A stretch of DNA of 64,000 nucleotides from Actinomycetes bacterium (GTDB lineage Bacteria; Actinomycetota; Acidimicrobiia; Acidimicrobiales; Acidimicrobiaceae): contig JAJYGA010000009.1 of the NCBI GenBank assembly GCA_021785255.1, positions 11,397 to 75,396 of the forward strand, read 5' to 3'. Below the pieces are notes generated by a model, which saw nothing but the letters and a program-made list of their open reading frames with translations, was not told where the DNA came from and did not search any database. The translations under genes were made by a program, and so were the position numbers. Shown piece after piece: positions 1,862-24,494 of the stretch. Each line of letters starts with the position of its first letter. Position 1 is the first letter of the stretch.

Positions 1862-3460
1862 CTAATTTGACTCCAGCAATCTTTTTGCAATCACCTTTAG
1901 GGCTAATGTTTCGTCTGCTCCTTCAAAGATCGACAGTACTCGAGCATCGACAAAGAGCCTGCTGACTGTGTACTCTTCTGCATAACCCATTCCGCCATGG
2001 ATCTGCATTGCCTCCCTGGTCACCCACTCGGCAGCTTTGCAGACGTAAGCCTTGACCATCGAGGCCTCAAGAACACCTTCACCTTTTGCCATCATGGATG
2101 CAACATCGTAAGAGAATTGTCTTGCAGCTTGTATATGTGCTGCCATTTTCCCGAGCTTGACTTTTGTTAGTTGGTAATCAACGATGTGTCGTCCAAAGAC
2201 TGATCTCTGGTTGGCATACTTTAGAGCTTGTTCATACGCTGCCTGCATGACCCCGACGGCCCGAGCAGCCGTTTGGATTCTTCCGTTTTCGAATCCTTCC
2301 ATCTGGAAGTAGAATCCCTTGCCTAAGCCGTTGTCTCCTCCGACAAGATTCTCATTCGGTACCCACCAGTTTTGAATGGAGACCTCAAATGAGTGCATTC
2401 CTCGGTACCCAATTGTATCGATTGCGCGACCTTCGATTCTTCCCCTAGCTCCTCTTCCTGAGGGATGAGTCTTTTCGAGAAGAAACTCATGCCCTGATGA
2501 TCTTTCCTTGTCGATTATGAAAAGGGAGAGACCTCTGTAAGACTTTGTCCGATCCGGATCTGTGCGAGCGAGCAGCATGAGAACATCCGCCCTTCCAGCG
2601 AACGTGCACCAAGTCTTGACTCCGTTTATTGTCCAACCGTCACCATCTCTTGTTGCTGTCGTTTGAATGTTGGCGACGTCCGAACCGAAGTCTGGCTCGG
2701 TCACCGCGACAGCACTCATAAGCCTGCCGGAAGCGAGTTTAGGTAACCAGCTTCTTTTTTGCTCCTCGGTTCCACCTTTTAGTAGTGCGCGAGCAAGGAT
2801 CTCCGGTCGAGTTATTAGTGACCCTCCTATTCCAAGAGATCCTCGAGAGAGTTCTTCAGTAGCGATTACCATTGCTAGATAGTCGTTCCCTCCTCCAGCG
2901 GCGAACCCTCCGTACTCCTGTGGAATCGACAGTCCGAATGCCCCCATCTCTCCGAGATCGGATATGACCTCCTCTGGAACATCAAGATTCCCGCGGTGGA
3001 CTTCATCGGCCACTGGCATAAGTTTTTCTGTTGCAAATCGGCGGAAGGCGTCTTGAAGTAGTTCAAACTCTCCTTCAAGTCCTCTATCCCCAGGAGTGTC
3101 AGCTAGAGAAGCCACGAAGTTCGGCTCCCGGTATTTGGTGAAAAAGCGTATGAAGTCTTCGCGTTCTGAGGAGTTGAGGGGAAAGCAGTAGTCTCGACCA
3201 AGGGAGTTTGAGACGATTTGATGCACGACGTCTGCCACGTACGCCTGTGCCAATTTTAGCTGTAACTCCCCTTTTCGTGCGTAGTTGAGAGCGCTACGAG
3301 CGGCTTGGACTGCGGAAGCGAGGTGCGCAAGATCGTATGCTATCGCTTGATCATCGTCCAAGGAGAGATTTCTCCTAAAATTTTCGATTGATCTATTGAC
3401 AAAAGAAGTACAGAACGCGACCGATGTTTCAAGTTCTGTGATGTTTGAACTTTCCATCAT
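1862..3460 (-). CDS. Acyl-CoA dehydrogenase family protein with a long N-terminal extension
   Basis: 532 aa. It has the ACAD signatures AVTEPDFGSDVANIQTTA, WCTFAGRADV and QIHGGMGYAEEYTVSRLFVDARVLSIFEGADE. Confidence 0.9.
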   Translation of the reverse strand: MMESSNITELETSVAFCTSFVNRSIENFRRNLSLDDDQAIAYDLAHLASAVQAARSALNYARKGELQLKLAQAYVADVVHQIVSNSLGRDYCFPLNSSEREDFIRFFTKYREPNFVASLADTPGDRGLEGEFELLQDAFRRFATEKLMPVADEVHRGNLDVPEEVISDLGEMGAFGLSIPQEYGGFAAGGGNDYLAMVIATEELSRGSLGIGGSLITRPEILARALLKGGTEEQKRSWLPKLASGRLMSAVAVTEPDFGSDVANIQTTATRDGDGWTINGVKTWCTFAGRADVLMLLARTDPDRTKSYRGLSLFIIDKERSSGHEFLLEKTHPSGRGARGRIEGRAIDTIGYRGMHSFEVSIQNWWVPNENLVGGDNGLGKGFYFQMEGFENGRIQTAARAVGVMQAAYEQALKYANQRSVFGRHIVDYQLTKVKLGKMAAHIQAARQFSYDVASMMAKGEGVLEASMVKAYVCKAAEWVTREAMQIHGGMGYAEEYTVSRLFVDARVLSIFEGADETLALKVIAKRLLESN

Positions 3461-4641: not shown

Positions 4642-5157
4642 ATGACGACTTACGAGAGACCGTTTGGTCGTCCGTTGGAGGACTTCATTGTCGGCGATGT
4701 TTACAAGCATTGGCCTGGCAAGACGATAACAGAGTATGATGACCATCTTTTCTGTATGATAACGATGAACCACCACCCCCTGCATACGAACGCTTACTAT
4801 GCGGAGCATGAAAGTGTGCAAGGGAAAAATGTTGTTGTAGGAAATCTGGTTTATTCATTGGTCCTCGGAATGAGTGTTCCGGATATCTCGGGATCTGCAA
4901 TCGCTAACCTCGAAGTGGAGTCACTTGTTCACAAGAACCCCGTGTTCCATGGGGATACTATCTATGCTGAGACGCGTGTCATCGAAGTCGTTGAGTCAAG
5001 ATCGAAAAAAGATCGAGGCATCGTTAAAGTTGAGACCAAGGGTTTCAATCAAGACGGTGTCGAGGTGTGTTACTTTCGCCGAAAAGTAATGGTTTACAAG
5101 AGGGAGTTCATGCCGCCTCGACGTAGACCTTACGGTGGGGCTATCTGGCCCGTCTAG
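4642..5157 (+). CDS. MaoC-like (R)-specific enoyl-CoA hydratase / hot-dog fold dehydratase
   Basis: The HPLHTN...GKNVVVGNL...FHGDTIYAETRV...GIVKVETKGFNQDGVEV pattern is typical of MaoC dehydratase domains. Confidence 0.85.
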   Translation: MTTYERPFGRPLEDFIVGDVYKHWPGKTITEYDDHLFCMITMNHHPLHTNAYYAEHESVQGKNVVVGNLVYSLVLGMSVPDISGSAIANLEVESLVHKNPVFHGDTIYAETRVIEVVESRSKKDRGIVKVETKGFNQDGVEVCYFRRKVMVYKREFMPPRRRPYGGAIWPV

Positions 5158-5260
5158 CTCTAACACTGATTTGTAACGATGGGTTTTGAGAGCGCTGCTC
5201 GTAGTGCTTTGTAAGTCACGACCACCTCGTCTATGGATTTATCTGGCTCTCCTAGAAGCG

Positions 5261-6772
5261 CTAGTTGGGATTAGAAGAGCTAAGAAATACCTTATTGTAC
5301 AGATCTTCGCCGTAGCTTGTTGGAAGTGGCTCGCGTTTGACTAACCTGAAATTCCGATGTCCGTCCGCGTCTCGTTCGGCCCTGAGGAAGAGAGCGACAT
5401 TGCCATTTTGTCTATTACAAAAACTCTCTGCAAAGTCGAATTGATGCGTGACAAAGAGTACCTTGACGTGGGCATCTAGGAGTGCTCGAACGATTTGACG
5501 AGCAATCTCAGACCCCTCTCGCTCGTTGGTCGCCGCAAACGACTCGTTGAAGAACACTATGGAGTGGGACGTGAGCTGATCGGTGATAGTGCTCATCCGG
5601 AGTAGTTCCTCGTCAAGCCTTCCACTTCTCATAGATGCATCTTCTTCTCGAATGAAGTGTGTGAAGATTCCAGTAGATACGTTTGCCCGGTATGATTCGG
5701 CCGTGACAAACATGCCGCACTGCATCATCAGTTGTGCCAATCCCACGCTTCGCAGGAAGGTTGATTTACCGCCAGAGTTGGCGCCGGTTATGAGTATGAG
5801 CATATTTCCAGCAGCATCAATATCGTTACCAACTATAGGACCCTGCGCCCGCAGCGCCAGGGAGGCATCGCGGAGTTCAGTAAATGTAAGCTCAACGTTG
5901 TTCCACGCTATTGGGACAGGGAAACACGTGGGCTGATTCATCTCTTGGAGTTGTTCTTTCAAATTGAGACATCCAATGTAAAATCCTAATTCGGAGCGCA
6001 ACATGGAAAAGTAGCTCTCGATGTGATCCGCGGACTGAGCCGTTGCGTTCGCTACAGTATTGAGTCCGCGATTGACTAGATCTGATAAAGCGTTAGCACC
6101 TGCTTCGTCACGTGAGGGTATCGCGAATGTGTATGACGATCGCGGTCCAATTCCAATACGTTCTTTCCAACCCAACTTAATGTCCAGAGGTGAGCGAAGT
6201 ATGTAGTTGGTCCCGGAGTTGTCTTTATATAGTTCGGCGCTCATGAGGACACCATCTTGAAAACGCAGACGTTTTAGATGACGGTCGATTGTGGCGAAGT
6301 ACTCGTCGTCCAAATCAGTCTGAAGACTTCGAAAGAGCGTCACAAAGCCGTCGGAATGGACTTGGCCGACAAAACCATCGGCCAGTACTCTCAACTGTTT
6401 AAGCAAACCTACAAACATCTCGAGTTCTCTCACGGCGCCGCTTAAGATCGAAGATGGAAAGTGCGATGATCTATGTCCCCATAGTCCTTTCTTAGCACGA
6501 ACCGACGTAACGGTTATTTCATATAACCTTCTTGCCATCTCAGGGTAGGCAATACAGTCAGCAAGGATATGTTGGCGATAGGTGATTTCTTCCGAATCCG
6601 TTAGGCTCGTGAGCATTACTCTCTTGGACACATCAAGGATGAATTTATCTCCTTGAGCCATCGATTCGAATAACGTCGACAGTCCTAGATCTTGGATCAG
6701 GTCTTGGGAGTTGGGAGGAAGTTCACCGTCGAAGTCGAAGTCGTGCTGGGCGTAGAGCAAGTGAGCTTTCAC
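5261..6772 (-). CDS. MutS-domain-V-only ATPase (MutS-like paralogue B); no mismatch-binding, Smr or nuclease domain
   Basis: 503 aa with a GTG start that overlaps the upstream stop (GTGA). Walker A ITGANSGGKSTFLR. MutS-type signature region SGRLDEELLRMSTI. Walker B IVFFNESFAATN. LFVTHQFDF matches the ATHyfEL motif of MutS. No GxFYE domain I. Confidence 0.85.
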   Translation of the reverse strand: MKAHLLYAQHDFDFDGELPPNSQDLIQDLGLSTLFESMAQGDKFILDVSKRVMLTSLTDSEEITYRQHILADCIAYPEMARRLYEITVTSVRAKKGLWGHRSSHFPSSILSGAVRELEMFVGLLKQLRVLADGFVGQVHSDGFVTLFRSLQTDLDDEYFATIDRHLKRLRFQDGVLMSAELYKDNSGTNYILRSPLDIKLGWKERIGIGPRSSYTFAIPSRDEAGANALSDLVNRGLNTVANATAQSADHIESYFSMLRSELGFYIGCLNLKEQLQEMNQPTCFPVPIAWNNVELTFTELRDASLALRAQGPIVGNDIDAAGNMLILITGANSGGKSTFLRSVGLAQLMMQCGMFVTAESYRANVSTGIFTHFIREEDASMRSGRLDEELLRMSTITDQLTSHSIVFFNESFAATNEREGSEIARQIVRALLDAHVKVLFVTHQFDFAESFCNRQNGNVALFLRAERDADGHRNFRLVKREPLPTSYGEDLYNKVFLSSSNPN

Positions 6773-8454
6773 GATATGATCCTTTTTCTCATGAGATCGT
6801 AAGTAAGGTGATACTTTTCAGCAATTGCCAGAGCATAAGCCAAACCATCTGCGGGACCTCGCACAACTTTGTAGGTTCGCTCTGATGGATTTTCCGGAAC
6901 AATGGTGCTCTTCATGCTTACAATAGTTTCGCCGAGCGATGCAATTTCGTCGATAAATGTGACGTAGACGCATAGAAGATCTAGTTCAATAACTCGTTCC
7001 ATGATCTTGGTACCCAGGCACCTAGCGTCATTCAAAGTTGTCGATGTGAAGATCTCGTTCATGATGATAATGCTGTTGGTCGTGGCTTTTTCAAAGACGT
7101 CGTGGATCCTTACCAAATCGTCTTCGAGCTTGCCGTTCATGTTGGCGGGATCTTCTTCCTGTTCAAAGTGGGTGTATATCTTGTCGAATAGAAAAAGACG
7201 AGCGGAGGTTCCTGGCACCGGACAACCGATGCTTGCAAAATGATGCAACTGTCCAAAAGTCCGTGCAAAAGTCGTCTTACCCCCTTGATTTGGCCCAGAT
7301 ATAACCAAGACCCGTTCGAGTCCTTTCAAGTAAAAATCATTGCTGATAACCGGAGTTCTTGTCGATACCAACTTGTTGGCCAACGCCAAATCGAAGGTAT
7401 CGTTCGCAAAGATTTCCTTTGACTCTTGAGAGACTTCCGGATAACAAAACCTTAAACCAGCCAAGCGGATTGGTGAAATGTACTCGATATAGGCAACATA
7501 AAACCGAAGTTCTCGCTCAAATCGTCGAATGTTCTCATCGAAAAATCCAACGTGCTGAAGGCAGTAGTCGTCTAGTGCGCAAAATTCGGTACTAAAGAGG
7601 CGGGCCAATAGTTCAAGGATTCTTGTTCCTACATGGTTCATGCCTGGACGCCCGGGATAAAATATTTGGTAGTCTTTTACTGCGCCTTGCTTGAAGCGTT
7701 CAAACGTTTTATCGACCTCAGCGCTGTAGTCAGATTCGCCTTCATATCTCCTCACTTCGACTTTAAGACCCTTGATACGTATGGAGTATTTGATATCGGC
7801 CAAAATCTTCTTGAGGTTGTTTGTCTCAATGTTGAGACAAACAAATTCGTCGGAGGATACATAGTCGGAAAGGTAATTACGGAAGGCGTTAAGCCGCTTT
7901 GACCTTAAATTACAGGAATTAAGACGAGCGGAGAGAACGGAGATAGCTTCGCAATAGATTGCGACTTCATCAAGAAACCAACCCTCTTTCTGGTAGTGAT
8001 TTTGCATTTTTTCAATCTGTTGGGCATGTATGTCTACCTGGAGTATGTTTTGTGCGAAATCCTTGAGCGCTTTCAACAACGTCTGATCTTCTAGATCACG
8101 AAAAATCTCCTGCCGAGAGTACACCTCCTGGATATCGTGAAGTTGATTGTAAAAGTGCTTTGCAACGAAGCCAGGATCTCTCTGTCCAGCAACAATTGCA
8201 CTTACTATAATGTCGAGATTCAGATCCGATACAAAGGACTCACTATTTTGATCCTCAATATGCTCAGCGTCACAAGACTGTTCGAATAGCAGGCTCCCAA
8301 ATAGGCCTGGAGTTGATGCCGCTGAAGACGGCTTCGTTGTCTCGACATCGGCGACTTCATTGTTGAGTGAGACGGGACTATCATAGCCGGTGGAAAGGTT
8401 TCTGACAAGCGATGGTGTTTCCGTTTGAGTAACATCCCTTTCTGACTGGCTCAT
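6769..8454 (-). CDS. MutS-domain-V-only ATPase (MutS-like paralogue A) with a low-complexity N-terminus
   Basis: 561 aa with an ATG that overlaps the upstream stop (ATGA). Walker A ISGPNQGGKTTFAR, then NGKLEDDLVRIHDV, Walker B IIIMNEIFTSTT, and VYVTFIDEIA. The long helical N-terminal region resembles the MutS core/lever only loosely. Confidence 0.85.
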   Translation of the reverse strand: MSQSERDVTQTETPSLVRNLSTGYDSPVSLNNEVADVETTKPSSAASTPGLFGSLLFEQSCDAEHIEDQNSESFVSDLNLDIIVSAIVAGQRDPGFVAKHFYNQLHDIQEVYSRQEIFRDLEDQTLLKALKDFAQNILQVDIHAQQIEKMQNHYQKEGWFLDEVAIYCEAISVLSARLNSCNLRSKRLNAFRNYLSDYVSSDEFVCLNIETNNLKKILADIKYSIRIKGLKVEVRRYEGESDYSAEVDKTFERFKQGAVKDYQIFYPGRPGMNHVGTRILELLARLFSTEFCALDDYCLQHVGFFDENIRRFERELRFYVAYIEYISPIRLAGLRFCYPEVSQESKEIFANDTFDLALANKLVSTRTPVISNDFYLKGLERVLVISGPNQGGKTTFARTFGQLHHFASIGCPVPGTSARLFLFDKIYTHFEQEEDPANMNGKLEDDLVRIHDVFEKATTNSIIIMNEIFTSTTLNDARCLGTKIMERVIELDLLCVYVTFIDEIASLGETIVSMKSTIVPENPSERTYKVVRGPADGLAYALAIAEKYHLTYDLMRKRIIS

Positions 8455-9125
8455 ACCGTACCTCGTGATGCTATCTGTGATTTCAAATCGTATTTGTCCA
8501 TAACGATTTGATCCCGAAAGATCCTGCTTGCTGAGTCAATGATCTTGTCATCGTTCCTTATAGGCAGCGTAGACCGTGTTGTATTTTGCAGTGGCTGGTT
8601 CTTGACTTTGAAACCAGGCCACGTATCACTTGGTGCATCTTTGCTCAATATGCCAAGCGCCCTTCTTGTAGCTTGGAAAGGAAGCGTAACGACAGAGTCA
8701 AACGCACTGAACTTTGGCGCATTACCTGATTGGGGGTGGTTTGCTTTGGGGTCTTTGGATCGCCCTGTCCTTGATACATAGTCATGTAGGATCTGTCGAA
8801 TCTGAAGTTTCATCTTGATACCACGGCTAGTTTCGTTTTCAACGATAGTTTCGACCGGCTGGAGTCTTCCAATACCAAGTATGTTCTCAGGTGGTTCTTT
8901 CTGAGATATTACTGCAATATCGTGCTCGAAATCTAAACGTCTCAGAAGAACATTACCAAAGTCAGTATTTTCTTGATGATGTCCTTCTGACCGATTCCAC
9001 GTCTCGTTCGTCGAATGACCAAGCCTTATGGCCACCGGCCTCGATCGACTCTGGTGAGTGGAACCGCAATCAAAGTGGGTGAGATTCGACCTAATTTTTC
9101 TGAACAAGCTTGTAGCTTCGGCCAT
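8451..9125 (-). CDS. Hypothetical protein, first gene of the MutS-like operon
   Basis: 224-aa ORF. AGGAGG lies 4 nt upstream of the ATG (revcomp of 9130-9135). The stop overlaps the next start. The protein is hydrophilic with a His/Asn/Ser-rich N-terminal third. No family recognised. Confidence 0.65.
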   Translation of the reverse strand: MAEATSLFRKIRSNLTHFDCGSTHQSRSRPVAIRLGHSTNETWNRSEGHHQENTDFGNVLLRRLDFEHDIAVISQKEPPENILGIGRLQPVETIVENETSRGIKMKLQIRQILHDYVSRTGRSKDPKANHPQSGNAPKFSAFDSVVTLPFQATRRALGILSKDAPSDTWPGFKVKNQPLQNTTRSTLPIRNDDKIIDSASRIFRDQIVMDKYDLKSQIASRGTV

Positions 9126-10016
9126 AAGACCTCCTAGCTAGGACTGTCGTCGTAGTTAGGAGCCATCAGCCACCTTGGCAGTTAGGGCGAGCTCCATCGC
9201 CTAAGTTCCACTTTAGCGGATCTGTGAATTTGAGCGGTAGTAGTCTTAGGTCGAGTACCTGTCGATACGCTACCTCGATCCACGTGCGTCTAGAAGCTCG
9301 GACGCACATCACAGCAAACAAGGAGGTCAGATGACATAATCCGAGCGACAAGCTCACGATAGCTAGCCGGTGTGAGTCCGGTCCAAGGAGACGCAGAGTC
9401 CTTGGTAGTGAAGCCCCCGGTTTGAGTATGGATGCCCGAGTCGAAGCGGGGTCGCAACCTGCGGGCCGCTCAAGCGGTTCAGTGGACATCAGCATGGTTT
9501 GACAACCAGGGCCTGTACTACTTGCACGGAACTAATTCGATACCCGAAGGGAGCGTAACCATGTCCAGAAGACCGTCGGTAAGCCGTATGCGGGAAAACT
9601 CAGTCCAGCATTGCACCAGTCTCCAAATAACGCAAGAACTAATACACAAAATCCCCAACATACTCGAAGCATATGAGCTTGACTGGTATACCAAGGGATA
9701 TCCTGTTCACCACCATTGCTACTAGTTATTAGTAGTTATTAGCCACATAACGGAGGTGGTCGCTGGGGAGGCTGGCTCCAATCGTGGGGGCTGCTGGTCC
9801 CAGGCGGTGGGTTGGAACATGTCACCATATAGCCTGGTCGGGACCTTAACCACGATTGGACGATGCTCAACCAGTGGCTTACCTTACTCTACTATTTCTG
9901 TCTCTATGTCTCCGAAGAGATCTGAACCGTTAGTCATGTTACCAGCAACACTCAAGCTTGATGTGTACTAGAGATTGCTGGCGACGACGGTTGTGATATG
10001 CTGTAAGATGATTTAA

Positions 10017-10934
10017 ATGCTATTGGAATTCCAGGATTTGACCAAGTCTTACGGCGATACGGTAGCCCTTGACAGTCTGTCATTTTCGGTTTCAAGTGGC
10101 GTGCTTTTTGGATTCCTTGGCCCAAACGGTGCTGGAAAAACCACGGCGATGAGGGCGGTGCTGAATCTAGTTGCCCTTGACCGCGGTGACGTTCTCGTCG
10201 ACGGCATAGATGTTAGAGAGAACTCAAGCGTGAGATATGGATATCTACCTGAGGAACGTGGCCTCTACCCTAAGATGAGCGTCTTTGATCACCTCGTTTA
10301 CATTGCTCGACTACACGGTATTGATCGCAAAGAAGCGGGAAGAAGAGCGAATGCCATGATCGATATATTGGACATACAACCTGGTGGAAAGTCCAAAGTC
10401 GAGTCGTTATCTCTTGGTAATCAACAACGATGCCAAGTTGCTGCAACCCTTATCCATGATCCGGAGATCCTCATTCTTGACGAACCTTTTTCAGGGCTCG
10501 ATCCAATGTCAATCGACATAATAAAGGATCTGTTGATTGAGCGGGCTCGACAGGGGCGGATAGTGTTGTTCTCTTCTCATCAGTTAGAGGTAGTCGAAGG
10601 CCTGTGTGAATCTGTTGCAATTATAAACAAAGGGCATCTAGTGCTAAACGATACTACCGAACACTTGACTTCGCTATCAGAGCGGTTGGTCATTCAAGTT
10701 AGAGAAGATCCAGAGGGAGAGTTTCTGAAAGATGTCAAAGAGTTCGAGATTGTAGACAAACAAAATGGTGTACTACACGTCAAGAAAAACTCAGATGAAA
10801 TACATGACGATGAACTCTTACACTTGGGACTTTCCTGTGGAACAATTCTGCGATACGATCACGAAAGAAGATCATTAGCTGGCGTATTTAGAGAGGCTAT
10901 TGTCAGGGACAATGCTGAAGGGGATACTGTGTGA
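10017..10934 (+). CDS. ABC transporter ATP-binding protein (ABC-2 exporter type)
   Basis: Walker A GPNGAGKTT, signature LSLGNQQR, Walker B ILILDEPFSGLD, H-loop SSHQL. Confidence 0.9.
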   Translation: MLLEFQDLTKSYGDTVALDSLSFSVSSGVLFGFLGPNGAGKTTAMRAVLNLVALDRGDVLVDGIDVRENSSVRYGYLPEERGLYPKMSVFDHLVYIARLHGIDRKEAGRRANAMIDILDIQPGGKSKVESLSLGNQQRCQVAATLIHDPEILILDEPFSGLDPMSIDIIKDLLIERARQGRIVLFSSHQLEVVEGLCESVAIINKGHLVLNDTTEHLTSLSERLVIQVREDPEGEFLKDVKEFEIVDKQNGVLHVKKNSDEIHDDELLHLGLSCGTILRYDHERRSLAGVFREAIVRDNAEGDTV

Positions 10935-11017
10935 CACAAGACTCGACTTTCGATTGAAATCTACTTAAACCTATATGGAAACGCGGTTAGAGACATGATT
11001 ACGAGACAATTACCGAT

Positions 11018-12208
11018 ATGAACCAGGTAAAGCTAATAGCAATGCGGGAGTTCTCCCAGCGTACGTCCTCTAGAGCCTTCAAGATAGCGACAGCTATAAC
11101 GATGCTGATAGCGTTAGGATATGTCGTTATACCTCATGTTCTAAGCGGTAAGCCAAAACCAGAAACTATCGCTTTAGTTGGCAGTGTTTCAAAGGAAATC
11201 CCAGCAATATTTTCTCAGGTCGCAGCGCTAAGCAACACCAAGGTTCGTTTTGTCTCAATCCCATCAATATCTCAAGCTAGAAGTCAACTGACCAGCGGAC
11301 GGGTATCGGTCGCTTATTCGCCAAGAGTTGGTCTTTTGGTTAAAACTATCTCTTCTACAGACCAGGCCGCGATTTTTGCCAAAGAAGTGTCGGTTGATAT
11401 TGGCAAGTTTCAAGCTTTACAGAAAGCAAACTTGACGCCAGTTCAAAAAAAGATCTTGCTATCTCCGACTAACGTCCGAGTTGCCGCAGTAGGGTCTACG
11501 CTACAGGTAGCACCTAGCACGCAGAAGGCTTCTATCTTTGAGTTGATATTGACCTACATTCTTCTTTCACAGTACGGAGCATGGGTAATGCTCGGAGTTA
11601 TTGAGGAGAAGTCGACCCGCGTTATAGAAGTTTTGCTCTCTGCCGTGAGGCCAATAGAACTACTTGTCGGTAAGATCATTGGAGTAGGACTCGTTGCGCT
11701 AGTCCATGCGAGCCTTATTTTAGTAGCACTCATAGTTGGACTCAGCTCAATTGGATCAAGCCCTTTACAAGTTCTTCCGAACTCCCTCATCGTTCTTGCT
11801 CCACTATGGCTCATCGTTGGGGGAGCGCTTTACTGTACGATGTTTGGCGCGGCAGGTTCAATGGTGACGAGAATCGAAGACGCACAAGCTGTGAGTTTTC
11901 CGATCGCGGTACCGATGTTAGTTGGATACATTGCTGGTCTTACGGCAATGTCCCAAACGTCATCTCCATCTACCATAATAAAGATTCTGAGTTTCGTCCC
12001 TGGTGTGTCACCGTTCCTAGACCCGGTGATGGTGGCGTCGGGTGTGATGTCTATTCCCCTTATGCTTGTTTCGCTAGCTATCTCGCTAGTAACTACATAC
12101 TTCCTTAGTAAAGTCGCTGGGAAAATTTACGTAGCCTCAATTCTGAAGATCGGAGCAAGGGTCAAGCTATCTGCAATCAAGAAATCATTTTCAAACGAAT
12201 ATATATAG
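11018..12208 (+). CDS. ABC-2 family transporter permease
   Basis: 396 aa with an N-terminal TM helix, a large extracytoplasmic loop and five C-terminal TM helices. It immediately follows the ATPase gene. Confidence 0.75.
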   Translation: MNQVKLIAMREFSQRTSSRAFKIATAITMLIALGYVVIPHVLSGKPKPETIALVGSVSKEIPAIFSQVAALSNTKVRFVSIPSISQARSQLTSGRVSVAYSPRVGLLVKTISSTDQAAIFAKEVSVDIGKFQALQKANLTPVQKKILLSPTNVRVAAVGSTLQVAPSTQKASIFELILTYILLSQYGAWVMLGVIEEKSTRVIEVLLSAVRPIELLVGKIIGVGLVALVHASLILVALIVGLSSIGSSPLQVLPNSLIVLAPLWLIVGGALYCTMFGAAGSMVTRIEDAQAVSFPIAVPMLVGYIAGLTAMSQTSSPSTIIKILSFVPGVSPFLDPVMVASGVMSIPLMLVSLAISLVTTYFLSKVAGKIYVASILKIGARVKLSAIKKSFSNEYI

Positions 12209-13164: not shown

Positions 13165-14106
13165 CTAATACTTGTTGAGAGGCAGATTGTTACTCCAGTT
13201 TGAACATGAACCAGCAGGACTCACCGAAGGAGTAAAAGAGAACTGTCTGGTTACAAAGTTGAAGTAGACAACATTTCCCTGACCCCACACAACCTTAGCA
13301 TTTGATCCCACAACACCAACGACACTTAGCGGATTAGATCCAGCTGGAGGATAGGATATTTCTGTTGGTGAATACTGGGAAGTCGCTAATGGCACATTTG
13401 GGCCTTCATTCTTTGCGTAATAAACTCGAGCCTGTGGGGTGCTATCAGCAGGGTAGCCATTGCTGGTATTCGAGGCAATTGGGTTATAGGCTCCAAAAAT
13501 TAGGAAGTATTCAGTTCGTCCGTTCCATAGACAGCTAAGGCTGCTGGTTATGGTAAACATTTCGTCACCAATATCAACACTTTGTCTTAATCCCTCCATT
13601 GCAGGACTATTCGGCGGTCCAGAGATGATTCCGCTTGGTTGAGCGTAGAACTCCTGGTTGCTTTGAGCTTGAACCTGTTGCTCCTTCTGTTGCTGTGCCG
13701 CTATGTACGCGGAATGGGCGGAGGGGTGTAGAGCCCAGAACTGTCTGTAGAGATCAACTTCCAGCACCTGCAGTGCATTGTCTTTTTCGAACAGAGCCGC
13801 TTTGTTCGGAGGCATCTTGTTTTCGTGGTCTAATGAGTTGAGTTCAGCAACTTTCTGTTCCTCCTGAGGAGTTAGTTGTAGTTGTAGTTGGCTCAACGTT
13901 TGATGCTCAAGTACGGTTAGTTGTTGTTGAAATTGGCTCAAGGTGTCATTTGCAAGCTGATCTGAAATCAGAGTCGTATGAGACTTTGCTTTGTGTGAGC
14001 TTTGGTCCCTTTGTTGGGAAGTTGTTACGAATGCGGCAGCAGTAACCAGAACAGAAGTGGATACGACCGCCGTTGTCAACTTGATTAGGGGCTTCATTTT
14101 CATCAC
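13165..14106 (-). CDS. Secreted protein of unknown function (signal peptide, Gln-rich coiled segment, C-terminal globular part)
   Basis: The N-terminus MMKMKPLIKLTTAVVSTSVLVTAAAFV is signal-like. It is followed by Q/L heptad-like repeats (QLQLQLTPQEEQ). No family recognised. Confidence 0.65.
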   Translation of the reverse strand: MMKMKPLIKLTTAVVSTSVLVTAAAFVTTSQQRDQSSHKAKSHTTLISDQLANDTLSQFQQQLTVLEHQTLSQLQLQLTPQEEQKVAELNSLDHENKMPPNKAALFEKDNALQVLEVDLYRQFWALHPSAHSAYIAAQQQKEQQVQAQSNQEFYAQPSGIISGPPNSPAMEGLRQSVDIGDEMFTITSSLSCLWNGRTEYFLIFGAYNPIASNTSNGYPADSTPQARVYYAKNEGPNVPLATSQYSPTEISYPPAGSNPLSVVGVVGSNAKVVWGQGNVVYFNFVTRQFSFTPSVSPAGSCSNWSNNLPLNKY

Positions 14107-14140
14107 CTTCCTGTCTATTATGTTGAATGCTCGTCAGTAC

Positions 14141-15136
14141 CTATATGTCATACTGGACGTCGGTTAGATATGCAACATAGGCACCTCGCAGTTGGAAGCT
14201 GTAGTACTCAGCTTGACTCCATGAGGTATTGTTAGTTTGATTTGGACTGCAACCCGCACTACTCTGTTGGTTGTTGTAACTGAGTACTCCAAAGAAGTTG
14301 AAGTAACTATCAGCGCTGTAGGGACCATTCACCCAGTCACCTATATTGCCAGAACAGTAGAGTTCTGGAGCTGCGACCGACGGTTCGGCACCAAATGATA
14401 CGTACAGTTCTTGAGAAGTAGTCCAATAGCCTGGAGCCATGTTACCATAGTCCACCATCGCAGGTTGATAACTACCAGCGGCAGCAGCATAGCCTTCCAC
14501 CCATGCGTATGCAGCACTCCCCGAACTCCACTGCGTCTCAAGATCTGATCCACCAAGCACTGAAATATTGGCGTCGACTGTGTGCACTTGTTGGGCAATC
14601 GTTTCGACTAACTGCTCCCAACCGGAGCCATATGTATAGCTAACGCCACAGGAATTATTAGTTCCGATAACAAGATCCAGTGGATCATGTGGAGCTGCAT
14701 AGCGGAAACCAAGAGCGTACCAATTTGCAAGTGTCTCTATTTGACTAGCATCGGCATAAAGTACCTGTTCAAAATTGACGAGTTGGGTACTTTGGCTACC
14801 CACTTGACATCCAAAGTCCAAGATTACCATACCGCCCCATCCTCCAACGGAGTTTGCATAGTAGCCATGATTTTCACCGTCTATCTGGGCTTGGCTGTTG
14901 TTCAAAGTCTGGACGTAGAAGCTTCCAGTTGAAGGTGGTTGATTTGGATATGGATTGATATAGGTGGGATTCTCTAGGTTTGTCGGCTGTAAGGTGGTCG
15001 TAGTTGCTGTACTTGTGGCAACCACCTGAGTAGTTGGAGTCTTAGTAGCTTCTGATATCAAAGAAAATATTGCTTCATGACCAAGGGACCTTGTCGCTAT
15101 TGCGTTTAGGTTTCCGACCGAAGACGTGCGCGTCAC
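14141..15136 (-). CDS. Putative secreted protein of unknown function; the ORF as given lacks its signal peptide (see the C8 tract)
   Basis: 331-aa ORF from GTG 15136. Its N/S/T/Y/G-rich composition with paired Cys is typical of extracytoplasmic proteins. The same frame stays open upstream and encodes ASLLLLAGVLVVG, but with no start codon. Confidence 0.65.
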   Translation of the reverse strand: MTRTSSVGNLNAIATRSLGHEAIFSLISEATKTPTTQVVATSTATTTTLQPTNLENPTYINPYPNQPPSTGSFYVQTLNNSQAQIDGENHGYYANSVGGWGGMVILDFGCQVGSQSTQLVNFEQVLYADASQIETLANWYALGFRYAAPHDPLDLVIGTNNSCGVSYTYGSGWEQLVETIAQQVHTVDANISVLGGSDLETQWSSGSAAYAWVEGYAAAAGSYQPAMVDYGNMAPGYWTTSQELYVSFGAEPSVAAPELYCSGNIGDWVNGPYSADSYFNFFGVLSYNNQQSSAGCSPNQTNNTSWSQAEYYSFQLRGAYVAYLTDVQYDI

Positions 15137-21955: not shown

Positions 21956-22291
21956 TTAACGGTGAGTATTCCACGACTCTTTATTAGTGAGTCCACTAAC
22001 TCTTTTGTGCGACATGAGGTCGTCTGATTTAACTGTTCCAAAGTCCGAAAGGAAGAACTTGTCAGTCAGATGACAAAGCCCACCGGCAAATGCGAGAGGG
22101 GTAATCGACCTGTGTGAAGCTGTCGGAAAAATACCCATGGAGTATCCGTAAGCTAATCCGTGAGGAGAGGTTGAAACTGTTAGCAACCAGGCGGTAAGGG
22201 ACGAGGCTAGCTGGTAAGGGCAACATATGTGAGCAGCCGGATAAACATCGTGATGATAAACAAGCCAAAGTTGCTGAAAGGCTTGAACCAA
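21956..22291 (-). CDS. Hypothetical small hydrophobic protein, possibly a truncated membrane hydrolase remnant
   Basis: 111-aa ORF abutting the island's left repeat. HRSITP ... GGLCHLTDKFF is faintly reminiscent of YdjM-type membrane hydrolases. The support is weak. Confidence 0.3.
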   Translation of the reverse strand: MVQAFQQLWLVYHHDVYPAAHICCPYQLASSLTAWLLTVSTSPHGLAYGYSMGIFPTASHRSITPLAFAGGLCHLTDKFFLSDFGTVKSDDLMSHKRVSGLTNKESWNTHR

Positions 22292-22560
22292 ATAGGTATG
22301 TGGGACGGTCGCATCATTTGAAAACAGGTTCGCGTGTTAGCTTGATGGAGTATTTTCCCACCTATGGATGTGAAGCTCCAACTACTTGTGCAACTTCACG
22401 GTTGGATATTGATGGTGACGACTCTTTGATCGTCACAGTACTTTCAGTCACAAATGGTTCCAACGACCATCCCCTTTTCTTTTCACTGCCCACTCCTTGT
22501 AACTAGATCTAACGATCTGACTTAGCTACAAGTTTGTCGCATTCACCCACTTCAAATACT

Positions 22561-22634
22561 GGTAAAGAGTTTCCGGAATGAATGGAAACGTATTACTGGA
22601 ATGGGTGGAAAACTCAAGTTAGTGGAATATTCAT
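22561..22634. repeat. Left copy of the imperfect direct repeat bracketing the 22.56-26.23 kb island
   Basis: ggtaaagagtttccggaatgaatggaaacgtattactgg...aatattcat matches 26178-26226 (ggttaaagagtttccggaatgggtggaaacgtattactgggatattcat). The left copy has an extra ~26 nt that re-duplicates ggaatgggtggaaa. Confidence 0.85.
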
Positions 22635-22649
22635 GCACTTCGAGGAGGT

Positions 22650-22840
22650 CTCCGGACGGTCCGGGCTGCTACTGAGGCATGCGGTCACTGTGATCGCGGA
22701 TGATGTCGACGCCCACTTCGAGCGAGCAGAACGCGAGGGTACCGCCCTACTCGGGGCGCCAAAGGATCAACCGTGGGGGTCCGCGACTACGTTGCCCTCG
22801 ATCCGGAGGAACACCAGTGAAAGTTCGCCACCGCGACGGT
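22650..22840 (+). pseudogene. C-terminal fragment of a GC-rich VOC (glyoxalase/bleomycin-resistance) family gene
   Basis: It reads ...VIADDVDAHFERAEREGTALLGAPKDQPWG. After a frameshift it continues VRDYVALDPEEHQ*KFATA, with TGA where the conserved Trp is expected. There is no N-terminal half. Confidence 0.6.
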
Positions 22841-22984
22841 CACTCCGTCATACATCTGGTCCTCGGTCCGGTCGACGTGGCCATTGACAAGTCGTGCCTG
22901 CTCGCTGCACAAGTCGACGTTCCGACCGTCAGGAAGCGGCCGCCGCCAATCTTTCCGGAGTCCGCTTCCGCTATACTGGCGCGG

Positions 22985-23854
22985 GTGACCAGCATCGACT
23001 ACAGCGACCGTCGGCGGCAGCTGCTGGCCAACGTCGCTGAGTGGGCCGGGTCCGAGCAGAATATACGGGTGGCGATCCTCACCGGGTCTGCTGCCCGCGA
23101 AGCCGATGATAGTGACGCCCTGTCGGATCTCGACATCGAGCTGTACGTGGAAGATCCCGCAGCCCTCCTAAGCGAACGGTCCTGGTACCGGCGCTTCGGC
23201 AGGGTGCTGGCGGTAGAGGAGCTGCCCAATCCCGGCTGGCACCCCACACGCCTTCTCTACCTCCAAGGCGGGAAGATCGACTTCATGATCGCCTCTTGGG
23301 CCGCCCTTCCCGGCACTCGCTATGAACGTGTCTACCGGGTGCTGGTGGACAAGGACTCGCTCACCGTCGATCTGCCGCCCCCAGAGCGGACGGACGTTGC
23401 ACCACCCACTCCAGAGGCGTTCGACACCTGCGTCAACTGGTTCTCGGCCGCCGCGATCATGAGCGCCCGCTGCATTGCCCGCGGCGATCCGTGGGCCGCC
23501 AAGTTCCGCGACTGGGACCTCAAGGTGGAGCTGCTCAAGATGATCGAGTGGGACCACCGAGCTCGCTACGGCTGGGACTACGACACCTGGTTCAACGCTA
23601 AGCACCTCGATCTCTGGGTCGACGCGGAGATTCGTTCGGCGCTCGATTCCTGCTGGGCCGGGTTCTCCCCAGCTGACGCCACGTTGGCGCTGCTTGCCTC
23701 CATGGATCTGTTCGTGCGGCTGGCGGAAAGGACGGCACCGGCAGTCGGAGCGGCCTGGGTCGAGAGTTCGGCGGTGTGCCGGGAGGTGGAGACAATCCTT
23801 GCCATGGGTGGGTTCGGTGGGCCGGACGTCTCATCGGACGCCCCGTCGGTCTGA
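22985..23854 (+). CDS. ANT(6)/AadK-family aminoglycoside (streptomycin-type) nucleotidyltransferase
   Basis: From GTG 22985 it reads TSIDYSDRRRQLLANVAEWAGSEQNIRVAILTGSAAREADDSDALSDLDIELYV. This parallels the AadK region ...ERIRLVTLEGSRTN...DYDISYFV. PTPEAFDTCVNWFSAAAIMSARCIARGD parallels PTAREFDDCCNEFWMVSTYVVKGLARNE. The gene is strongly GC-rich with GC-biased third positions. Confidence 0.7.
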   Translation: MTSIDYSDRRRQLLANVAEWAGSEQNIRVAILTGSAAREADDSDALSDLDIELYVEDPAALLSERSWYRRFGRVLAVEELPNPGWHPTRLLYLQGGKIDFMIASWAALPGTRYERVYRVLVDKDSLTVDLPPPERTDVAPPTPEAFDTCVNWFSAAAIMSARCIARGDPWAAKFRDWDLKVELLKMIEWDHRARYGWDYDTWFNAKHLDLWVDAEIRSALDSCWAGFSPADATLALLASMDLFVRLAERTAPAVGAAWVESSAVCREVETILAMGGFGGPDVSSDAPSV

Positions 23855-24494
23855 GCTTTCCGAGGCCCGGGGTTGTTGGGATAGGTGCTCGGCAACCCAC
23901 CGGTGTGAGAAATCTTTGTTCGCTCGAGCTCTCGTAGCGCGGGTATCACTCCGGTGGCGATCCGTTCTCTTTGTTCTGGTGCCGATGGACCAAGAGGCAT
24001 GAAGTTGAACGCTGAGGACCCACCGCCCCAGCTGGTATCTCAGAGACGGCGAGAACCAAGGCAGGAACGAAGGAGACGCCTGGCCAACTGACGGTTTACA
24101 GTCCTAGATGCGAAATGTGCGACAGACGTGAACGCAAAGCAAACACATGTGCGCCTATCCTTCCCCGCCTCAAAGGGCCAGGTCTGTCGGCGTGTTTGAT
24201 CACTTATCTTGCTCGAATTCACATTAACGACCAGTGGGAGCTTGACTACCTTTATTGCAAGTATGGCGTTTGGGTTATTTATTGGTTGTGTAGGATAGGC
24301 CTATGGCGACACAACATGCTGATGGAAGGTTGACATACATGAGTAGAGGAGTTCCAGTTGCTTACTACTAAGGTGGCGACATTCTTGGTCATTGCTGCGT
24401 TCGTGCTGGGTCTTAGGTCGATGTGGACTGGTAACAGATCTTGGATCATCTTGACTTACACTTCCCTAATGGGCGTGTGTAGCGTCATCGGAAT

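Follow-up and report, generated by a model that had tools for sequence, protein, structure and literature searches.

A predicted fluoride-switched MutS4A/MutS4B operon with a degenerate leader reading frame

The MutS4A and MutS4B proteins, as described by Lin, Nei and Ma (2007; PMC2190696), contain only the MutSac domain and are encoded by adjacent genes in which the stop codon of A overlaps the start codon of B. Their distribution is sporadic, pointing to horizontal transfer, and the published list includes the acidophiles Thermoplasma and Ferroplasma together with Thermoanaerobacter (T. tengcongensis) and Chloroflexus (C. aurantiacus); their function was unstudied (PMC2190696). Genes named as mutS or DNA repair genes were reported downstream of the crcB motif by Weinberg et al. 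(2010; PMC2864571), a statement repeated in PMC7266159, passages of which cite Baker et al. (2012) on the fluoride riboswitch regulon. The present analysis concerns a stretch of 64,000 nucleotides (nt), referred to below as the window, from contig JAJYGA010000009.1 (assembly GCA_021785255.1, positions 11,397 to 75,396 of the forward strand) of an actinomycete of the Acidimicrobiaceae, in which three minus-strand open reading frames (ORFs), designated ORF1, ORF2, and ORF3, follow a fluoride riboswitch. The locus is very probably a fluoride-regulated MutS4A/B operon, with ORF2 as MutS4A and ORF3 as MutS4B; the complete interpretation, that of a fluoride-switched MutS4A/MutS4B operon headed by a degenerate leader ORF, is assigned a probability of roughly 0.8. 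This type of system is already in the literature, to which the local locus adds another member with the twist of a leader ORF.

The operon and its fluoride riboswitch

The three ORFs are chained by overlaps of 4 nt, and the Shine-Dalgarno (SD) sequence of ORF1 lies 4 nt upstream of its ATG (Table 1); both features had been described in an original prediction made from the sequence alone, and both were found again in the raw sequence and, for the overlaps, in the ORF listing as well. The same prediction described the neighboring spacer as ORF-free and structured but missed its content: a scan against Rfam finds there a fluoride riboswitch, as well as a group II intron match close to the threshold. 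For the riboswitch the score is 49.3 bits (gathering cutoff 34), with an E value of 1.2e-10 for the whole window, and the match covers the full model (positions 1-64). It is located in the 5' leader, on the same strand as the operon, and the end of the aptamer is 14 nt from the SD of ORF1. In the ligand-free minimum-free-energy fold of positions 9105-9215, the aptamer 3' strand, GGCUCCUA, pairs with the SD-containing segment UAGGAGGUC. A helix that sequesters the SD is also predicted in three related loci (L007, L093, and L010), in which the sequence differs on both strands, and in L010 the switch directly controls MutS4A. No terminator-like hairpin with a U tract was found 3' of the aptamer in the terminator scan of the window locus, and promoter and terminator scans of positions 5000-9700 gave nothing above chance level; no promoter can be assigned.

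Table 1. Positions of the operon, its control elements, and other features in the window
Feature	Position	Strand	Details
ORF3 (MutS4B)	5261-6772	-	503 residues; GTG start overlapping the ORF2 stop
ORF2/ORF3 junction	6769-6772	-	GTGA overlap
ORF2 (MutS4A)	6769-8454	-	561 residues; ATG start
ORF1/ORF2 junction	8451-8454	-	ATGA overlap
ORF1	8451-9125	-	224 residues; ATG start at 9123-9125 (ORF listing and raw sequence)
ORF1 SD	9130-9135	-	AGGAGG
Expression platform	9123-9165	-	aptamer 3' strand GGCUCCUA, anti-SD helix, SD AGGAGG, ORF1 ATG
Fluoride riboswitch aptamer	9150-9210	-	crcB motif, RF01734; Rfam covariance match
Group II intron D1-D4-4 match	9364-9497	+	47.3 bits, just below the cutoff of 49 (Rfam)
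ABC-2-type transporter gene	10017-12208	+	ABC_tran and ABC2_membrane_3; divergent from the operon
Group II intron D1-D4-7 match	22058-22202	+	72.9 bits

In the fluoride riboswitch class, the 3' strand of the aptamer takes part in the pseudoknot of the fluoride-bound state. Because this strand would then be drawn into the pseudoknot, release of the SD is predicted to follow fluoride binding, and the switch would be of a translational type that is ON with fluoride. Under the proposed mechanism, binding of fluoride would lock the aptamer 3' strand in the pseudoknot and so free the ribosome-binding site, translation would be turned ON at ORF1 by the freed SD, and the ON signal would be carried across the open ORF1 frame by ribosomes, which would reach ORF2 by way of ATGA and ORF3, in turn, by way of GTGA.

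The linkage of this gene pair to fluoride is not peculiar to the window. A covariance model built from four aptamers, when searched against 1.04 Mb of related loci, gave 113 riboswitch matches with E values below 3e-4. A riboswitch is present upstream of MutS4A on the same strand in 57 loci, in 43 of them within 300 nt of the conserved core, and the Rfam model adds three more, giving 60 of the approximately 75 loci with upstream sequence (about 80%). Five loci (L086, L091, L027, L070, and L073), each with four to six separate riboswitch matches in 13 kb, are dense fluoride-response islands. Where a gene intervenes between the riboswitch and MutS4A, it varies from locus to locus and may encode a His_Phos_1 protein, a pyrophosphatase, an FlK-type thioesterase, a Na+/H+ exchanger, an MFS protein, a HEAT-repeat protein, or a dynamin-like GTPase. 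Among the neighbors counted in 84 loci are a dynamin-like GTPase (22 loci), an Mrp/hydrogenase-like complex (19), enolase (14), MFS (13), Usp (10), a Na+/H+ exchanger (8), CrcB and DUF190 (6 each), and HAD (4); pyrophosphatase genes occur in some loci (L009 and L015), and enolase or pyrophosphatase is at times part of the same riboswitch-controlled transcript. The recurrent neighbors match the published fluoride regulon, as it is given in passages of PMC11139923.

Two of these neighbors are of interest in their own right. The gene for the dynamin-like GTPase (about 580 residues, Dynamin_N) adjoins the MutS4 pair, often at less than 200 nt (L014, L016, L018, L019, L040, L045, L049, L050, L065, and others), and five or six of its copies have a fluoride riboswitch of their own; the protein may be an unrecognized member of the fluoride regulon, since the passages of a 2024 review that were consulted, which were not searched for dynamin, are silent about it. 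In a delta-proteobacterial metagenome-assembled genome (MAG; L055, 3742-4413), the riboswitch is followed by a gene for an FlK-type fluoroacetyl-CoA thioesterase (PF22636, E = 1e-34) and then by MutS4A/B, an arrangement that hints at a link to organofluorine metabolism.

The MutS4A/MutS4B pair and its possible role

ORF2 and ORF3 fit MutS4A and MutS4B by the published defining features, rather than by comparison with the named sequences: their profiles are those of the ATPase domain only, the A and B genes overlap, the two form distinct, anciently duplicated lineages, and their bacterial distribution is sporadic. The homologs fall into at least 8000 clusters for ORF3 and 7973 for ORF2, and are typically 53-79% identical over nearly the full length (98-100% of the length for ORF3). 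A genome scan gave 80 loci, in Actinomycetota, Dormibacterota, Chloroflexota, Firmicutes, delta- and alpha-proteobacteria, Planctomycetes, Verrucomicrobiota, and Acidobacteria; relatives of 53-64% identity are spread over those phyla and include Thermoanaerobacterium and Chloroflexia MAGs, a taxonomic overlap with the carriers on the published MutS4 list. The ORF2 homolog is located directly upstream of the ORF3 homolog in every locus that shows both, with a 4-nt overlap of the two genes in 79 of 83 related loci (48 ATGA and 31 GTGA), and in a profile-profile alignment MutS4A and MutS4B can be matched over 214 ATPase columns only, with 25% identity. The constant adjacency, the overlaps, and the complementary H-loop residues (Phe in A and His in B) make the heterodimer proposed in the original prediction a reasonable one, and from these features of the sequences an obligate MutS4A/MutS4B heterodimer appears likely. 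The view of the operon as an accessory module agrees with its patchy distribution.

It had further been proposed that the module is of a defense or DNA-surveillance type; the pair would then sense foreign phage or plasmid DNA, and ORF1 would act as the effector. This proposal can draw on the accessory, patchy, and apparently horizontal spread of the family, on the group II intron sequences near the operon, and on weak PADLOC matches of ORF2 and ORF3 (E = 0.001-0.05), but these are confined to the P-loop, no PADLOC-DB 2.0 family is matched beyond it, and ORF1 has no match. ORF1 is also species-specific and catalytically dead (see below), no nuclease or other effector is conserved beside the pair, the window flanks hold metabolic genes and an ABC transporter, and fluoride riboswitch control together with fluoride-regulon neighbors is the rule across loci. 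The PADLOC matches were taken as P-loop noise only, and the reading as a defense system was rejected; given that no PADLOC match is significant and that the homologous loci contain fluoride-response rather than defense genes, anti-phage or anti-plasmid defense or DNA surveillance is very improbable.

The proteins of the fluoride-switched pair have MutS_V as their sole significant Pfam family (E = 1.3e-17 for ORF2 and 6.2e-21 for ORF3), with no match to MutS_I, II, III, or IV, Smr, or HNH (MutS_I and MutS_II being looked for at E values up to 1), which agrees with the earlier report that mismatch-recognition, Smr, and HNH domains are absent. The motifs quoted in that report were all located, these being Walker A GPNQGGKTT, the signature-like GKLEDDL, Walker B IIIMNEIF, and VTF in ORF2, and GANSGGKST, GRLDEEL, IVFFNESF, and VTH, respectively, in ORF3. 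The scores against the NCBIfam models of MutS1 (TIGR01070, 66-70 bits against a cutoff of 641.7; NF003810, 69-71 against 480) and MutS2 (TIGR01069, 57-68 against 400), together with the lack of domains I and II and of Smr, support the earlier view of the pair as distinct from canonical MutS1 and MutS2 (overall, 57-71 bits against cutoffs of 400-642).

In the AlphaFold model of ORF2 (predicted local distance difference test score (pLDDT) 76; predicted TM-score (pTM) 0.75), residues 1-49 are below a pLDDT of 50 and appear disordered, and conservation begins near residue 52, matching this disordered, nonconserved N terminus. Foldseek aligns the model with MSH2, MSH3, and MutS over about 500-590 columns (query-normalized TM-score (TMq) 0.5-0.6; E about 1e-18). 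Because domain V would account for less than half of the structurally matched span, ORF2 probably contains the core/lever and clamp parts (domains III and IV) in addition to domain V. The model also has a beta-hairpin at residues 223-236, and the earlier description of the proteins as domain V alone with helical regions upstream must be given up. The match of ORF2 to the MutS2 core reaches residue 557, and two terminal helices are modeled at residues 537-560; the reported absence of a C-terminal helix-turn-helix is therefore probably incorrect for ORF2, whereas ORF3 keeps only the first part of it (PLPTSYGED). Both proteins stop directly past the ATPase domain, without Smr. The N terminus of ORF3, MKAHLLY, is conserved in homologs; the ORF3 model is poor and was used only for the identity of the top Foldseek matches, which are MutS2 and MutS.

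The MutS2 entries at the head of the ORF3 Foldseek list (9a5o_B, 7vuf, and 9kce), with MutS2 also among the best sequence matches, raise the alternative of a role in ribosome or translation quality control similar to that of MutS2 (RqcU), in which the dimer would clamp ribosomes that stall or collide when translation GTPases are inhibited by fluoride or ATP is depleted. In lacking domains I and II the pair is similar to the MutS2 core, ribosome-bound MutS2 is represented in the Protein Data Bank (PDB) by entries 7qv3 and 8qpp, and NaF is reported to deplete ATP and to alter the decay of RNA in E. coli (PMC10100675). However, the pair has no Smr domain, and its members, of 503-561 residues as compared with 785 in B. 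subtilis MutS2, are without the C-terminal MutS2 modules; the TIGR01069 scores given above are far below the cutoff, and no ribosome-rescue partner is conserved nearby. A role of this kind is accordingly regarded as unlikely.

Changes in the ATPase motifs extend across the family. In homologs from many phyla, Asn replaces the Walker-B Asp (74 of 74 MutS4A and 78 of 79 MutS4B sequences), the catalytic Glu being kept, and at the H-loop position MutS4A has Phe (73 of 73) and MutS4B has His (79 of 79). These motif states suggest two nonequivalent composite ATPase sites, as in MSH heterodimers, and the MutS4A site is, to judge from its H-loop Phe, degenerate. The Asp to Asn change that is natural in both MutS4 paralogs has been engineered in E. 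coli MutS as D693N (PDB entry 3k0s, which is among the structural matches of the ORF2 model), and this mutation is reported to impair Mg2+ coordination and ATP turnover. By comparison with this mutant, the invariant Walker-B Asn suggests an altered handling of Mg2+, and it is presumably functional. MutS4A and MutS4B would form an asymmetric heterodimeric ATP-gated clamp with the MutS ATPase and probably with lever and clamp domains, in which there would be no mismatch-binding domain, MutL-connector domain, or nuclease, one ATPase site would be degenerate, and both Walker-B aspartates would be replaced by Asn. The predicted clamp tips (residues 240-275 of ORF2 and 172-225 of ORF3) have low model confidence, yet they are among the most conserved parts outside the ATPase, with the conserved strings DYSAEV..FERFKQGAVKDY in ORF2 and DNSG...WKER..PRSSY in ORF3.

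It should be recognized that several observations weigh against the interpretation of the locus as a fluoride-switched operon encoding such a clamp. The fold z-score of the expression platform in the window is unremarkable (-1.2), and ORF2 has a GAGG of its own 6 nt 5' of its ATG, so that coupling via ORF1 may not be obligatory. Approximately 20% of the pairs have no detectable riboswitch upstream, 12 loci having none at the Rfam cutoff, and the window, apart from the ABC ATPase, contains no crcB, enolase, DUF190, Usp, Na+/H+ exchanger, dynamin-like, or other regulon gene. No experiment tying MutS4A/B to fluoride tolerance was found in the literature, and a keyword search of passages of the 2024 review of fluoride resistance (PMC11139923) returned no MutS4-type gene. 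With respect to the proteins, the AlphaFold model of ORF3 is of low confidence (pLDDT 56), and the clamp-tip segments are non-basic, with net charges of about +1 (ORF2 residues 200-275) and about 0 (ORF3 residues 172-225). The last point is weak evidence against simple binding of the DNA backbone; the combination of conserved and non-basic tips suggests a specific ligand instead of a generic contact with DNA.

The role that appears likeliest for the fluoride-switched pair is a fluoride-stress function on a nucleic acid or nucleoprotein substrate, which would be neither mismatch repair nor phage defense, and its ATPase chemistry may be adapted to conditions in which Mg-fluoride species poison ordinary P-loop enzymes. 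As the substrate, DNA is put forward tentatively, whereas the ribosome or RNA is a doubtful candidate, as is a protein or other ligand. It is also conceivable, although the odds are low, that MutS4A/B is a dedicated fluoride-stress ATPase that has no part in DNA repair, the Walker-B Asn and degenerate H-loop being suited to metal-fluoride chemistry. Such an ATPase could provide an ATP switch that still works where ADP-MgFx traps ordinary P-loop enzymes, or it could be a sensor or remodeler that resolves a fluoride-poisoned enzyme, ribosome, or replisome via its non-basic clamp tips. If this were correct, it would represent a new functional class in the MutS family and the first intracellular activity for the repair of fluoride damage, as opposed to export or enzyme over-production.

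A related alternative is suggested by the match of ORF3 to the KamC model (E = 4.7e-19), which is equal in strength to its MutS1 and MutS2 matches; KamC is the NCBIfam name for a MutS_V-type ATPase that acts as the reactivase of lysine 5,6-aminomutase. A pair of this type would be an enzyme reactivase or remodeler that uses ATP to strip Mg-fluoride-phosphate from enolase or pyrophosphatase or to remodel another protein, and the occurrence of enolase in 14 of 84 loci and of pyrophosphatase in some, at times in the riboswitch transcript itself, is in keeping with this, as are the highly conserved, non-basic clamp tips. The KamC scores, however, are 39.9 bits for ORF2 and 68.6 bits for ORF3 against a cutoff of 300 and arise from the ATPase region only, no single enzyme is constantly adjacent, and the predicted fold of ORF2 matches the DNA-clamp proteins MutS and MSH2 over nearly its whole ordered length. 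A KamC-like function is thus distinctly unlikely, and a fluoride-stress function on nucleic acid or nucleoprotein remains the preferred role.

The significance of the pair lies in the fact that most explanations of fluoride resistance invoke exporters or over-production of the enzymes that fluoride inhibits. Since 2010 a MutS-like gene has stood on the list of those under riboswitch control, with its function unassigned in the literature found, and no functional study of fluoride-linked MutS-like genes was encountered there. The vague label of DNA repair can now be replaced by a defined target, the MutS4A/B pair, which is linked to the riboswitch at about 80% of the examined loci in many phyla, and the family-wide changes in ATPase chemistry add to the fluoride linkage in making its role sharply testable.

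ORF1 as a probable translated leader

ORF1 has no Pfam match at E values up to 1 and none in NCBIfam or PADLOC. No homolog from outside its own species was found by a word-indexed search of 5.8 billion proteins, by tblastn in the 85 related loci, or by HMMER run exhaustively on 1.84 billion representatives. The two nearest relatives, however, whose MutS4A is 69-71% identical to that of the window (MutS4B being 79% identical in L007), have a gene for a His_Phos_1 phosphatase of 258-259 residues between the riboswitch and MutS4A, and the relationship of ORF1 to this family is visible only by direct comparison with these syntenic genes. ORF1 is collinear from residue 1 with the His_Phos_1 protein of L093 (28% identity over 163 residues, E = 1e-9) and is also collinear with that of L007 (E = 1e-5); against a hidden Markov model of three His_Phos_1 proteins it scores 19.0 bits, as compared with a maximum of 5.8 for shuffled sequences (n = 2000). 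At the DNA level, what similarity to the relatives remains is confined to the riboswitch and the initial codons (89% over 100 nt). The catalytic motifs have decayed, RHG to GHH and SHD to SKD with deletion of SPLxRA, so that the Arg of RHG, the second Arg (in SPLxRA), and the second catalytic His are lost. No similarity to ORF1 was found in the other intervening ORFs (that of 253 residues in L009, those in L015 and L021, and others). By these sequence comparisons ORF1 descends from a His_Phos_1 gene but is lineage-specific, catalytically dead, and not a functional member of the family.

The frame itself has nevertheless been maintained. Its 224 codons are free of stops, as was the case for 0 of 20,000 shuffles, the other five frames hold 8-16 stops, and therefore the frame is not a product of chance; the codon score is positive in frame 0 only. 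ORF1 probably serves as a translated leader that relays riboswitch control to ORF2, and its translation would have been kept after the loss of enzyme function because the frame relays the riboswitch decision via the ATGA overlap. The differences within the species are 7 in 675 nt for ORF1, 6 in 1686 for ORF2, and 2 in 1512 for ORF3, so that ORF1 is 3-8 times as diverse as the other two; its changes, of which 4 are nonsynonymous and 3 synonymous, are too few to be decisive.

An alternative is that ORF1 is more than a leader and encodes a working new protein, such as a pseudo-phosphatase whose binding partner would be the MutS4 pair or a phospho-ligand. That the frame stays open despite approximately 75% amino acid divergence, with gene-like codon usage in frame 0 only and a strong SD under riboswitch control, is compatible with this possibility, but the occurrence in a single species, the loss of the RHG Arg, the SPLxRA motif, and the second catalytic His, and the raised diversity within the species (with the reservation as to small counts) are not, and a protein function is considered doubtful. 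The original prediction had cast ORF1 as a dedicated partner or effector and had made co-conservation with the MutS-like pair the test of this idea; the searches described above place ORF1 in one species only, and neither the partnership nor the co-conservation is borne out. One metagenome, sample ERZ27233564, contains both the species of the window and a 79%-identical relative with an intact His_Phos_1 gene (L001 and L008). If ORF1 is a leader, this dead phosphatase gene held open under a riboswitch is an example of a reading frame that may persist for regulation and not for its protein.

Surroundings and comparison with known systems

The near-threshold group II intron match in the spacer, which has the riboswitch on one side and the divergent gene for the ABC transporter on the other, is interpreted here as an intron relic; in L007, a group II intron match (2973-3049) also lies upstream of the riboswitch. 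The second intron match in the window adjoins a 2-kb segment (22000-24000) with a G + C content of 0.58, as compared with about 0.47 elsewhere, which includes an ORF (22700-23854) whose product matches the streptomycin adenylyltransferase family (PF04439, E = 4e-38); this segment may have been acquired horizontally. Homologs of the ABC_tran protein are found in nine related loci, the copy in L062 being 37% identical to that of the window, and the ORFs at 13165-15136 have no Pfam match. The pyruvate dehydrogenase (PDH) E1 encoded in the window shares a 90%-identity cluster with its counterpart from Ferrithrix thermotolerans, from which the host is taken to be an acidophilic, Ferrithrix-like relative among the Acidimicrobiia. 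Permeation of hydrogen fluoride (HF) is given in passages of PMC11139923 as the main route of fluoride entry, and because fluoride enters mainly as HF, a low external pH should sharpen fluoride stress.

The fluoride riboswitch regulon is the closest system with respect to control. The window shares with it an above-cutoff aptamer in the 5' leader, mutS is among the downstream genes listed for the regulon, and the related loci contain the same genes as the regulon (crcB, enolase, pyrophosphatase, Na+/H+ antiporter, Usp, HAD, and formate-hydrogen-lyase-like complexes). However, many described fluoride riboswitches act through terminators, whereas SD sequestration is predicted for the switch in the window, which governs a degenerate leader ORF and not a MutS gene directly and has no fluoride exporter nearby. 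With MutS4 as described by Lin et al., the pair shares the ATPase-only paralogs and the patchy spread over distant phyla; the 2007 description predates the riboswitch and makes no link to fluoride, and the pair in the window adds the degenerate leader ORF.

Among the better characterized MutS proteins, MutS2/RqcU resembles the pair in having no mismatch-binding or connector domains, in dimerization through an ABC-type ATPase, and in a role outside mismatch repair, and it provides the best Foldseek match for ORF3. MutS2, however, is a homodimer with a C-terminal KOW domain and Smr nuclease and a canonical DE Walker B, whereas MutS4 is a pair of paralogs with an NE Walker B and no nuclease. The eukaryotic MSH2-MSH6 and MSH2-MSH3 proteins are heterodimers with two nonequivalent ATPase sites, as is suggested for MutS4, and the ORF2 model finds its best structural match in MSH2 (TMq up to 0.60), but the MSH proteins keep domains I and II, both of which are lacking in MutS4, and signal to MutL homologs.

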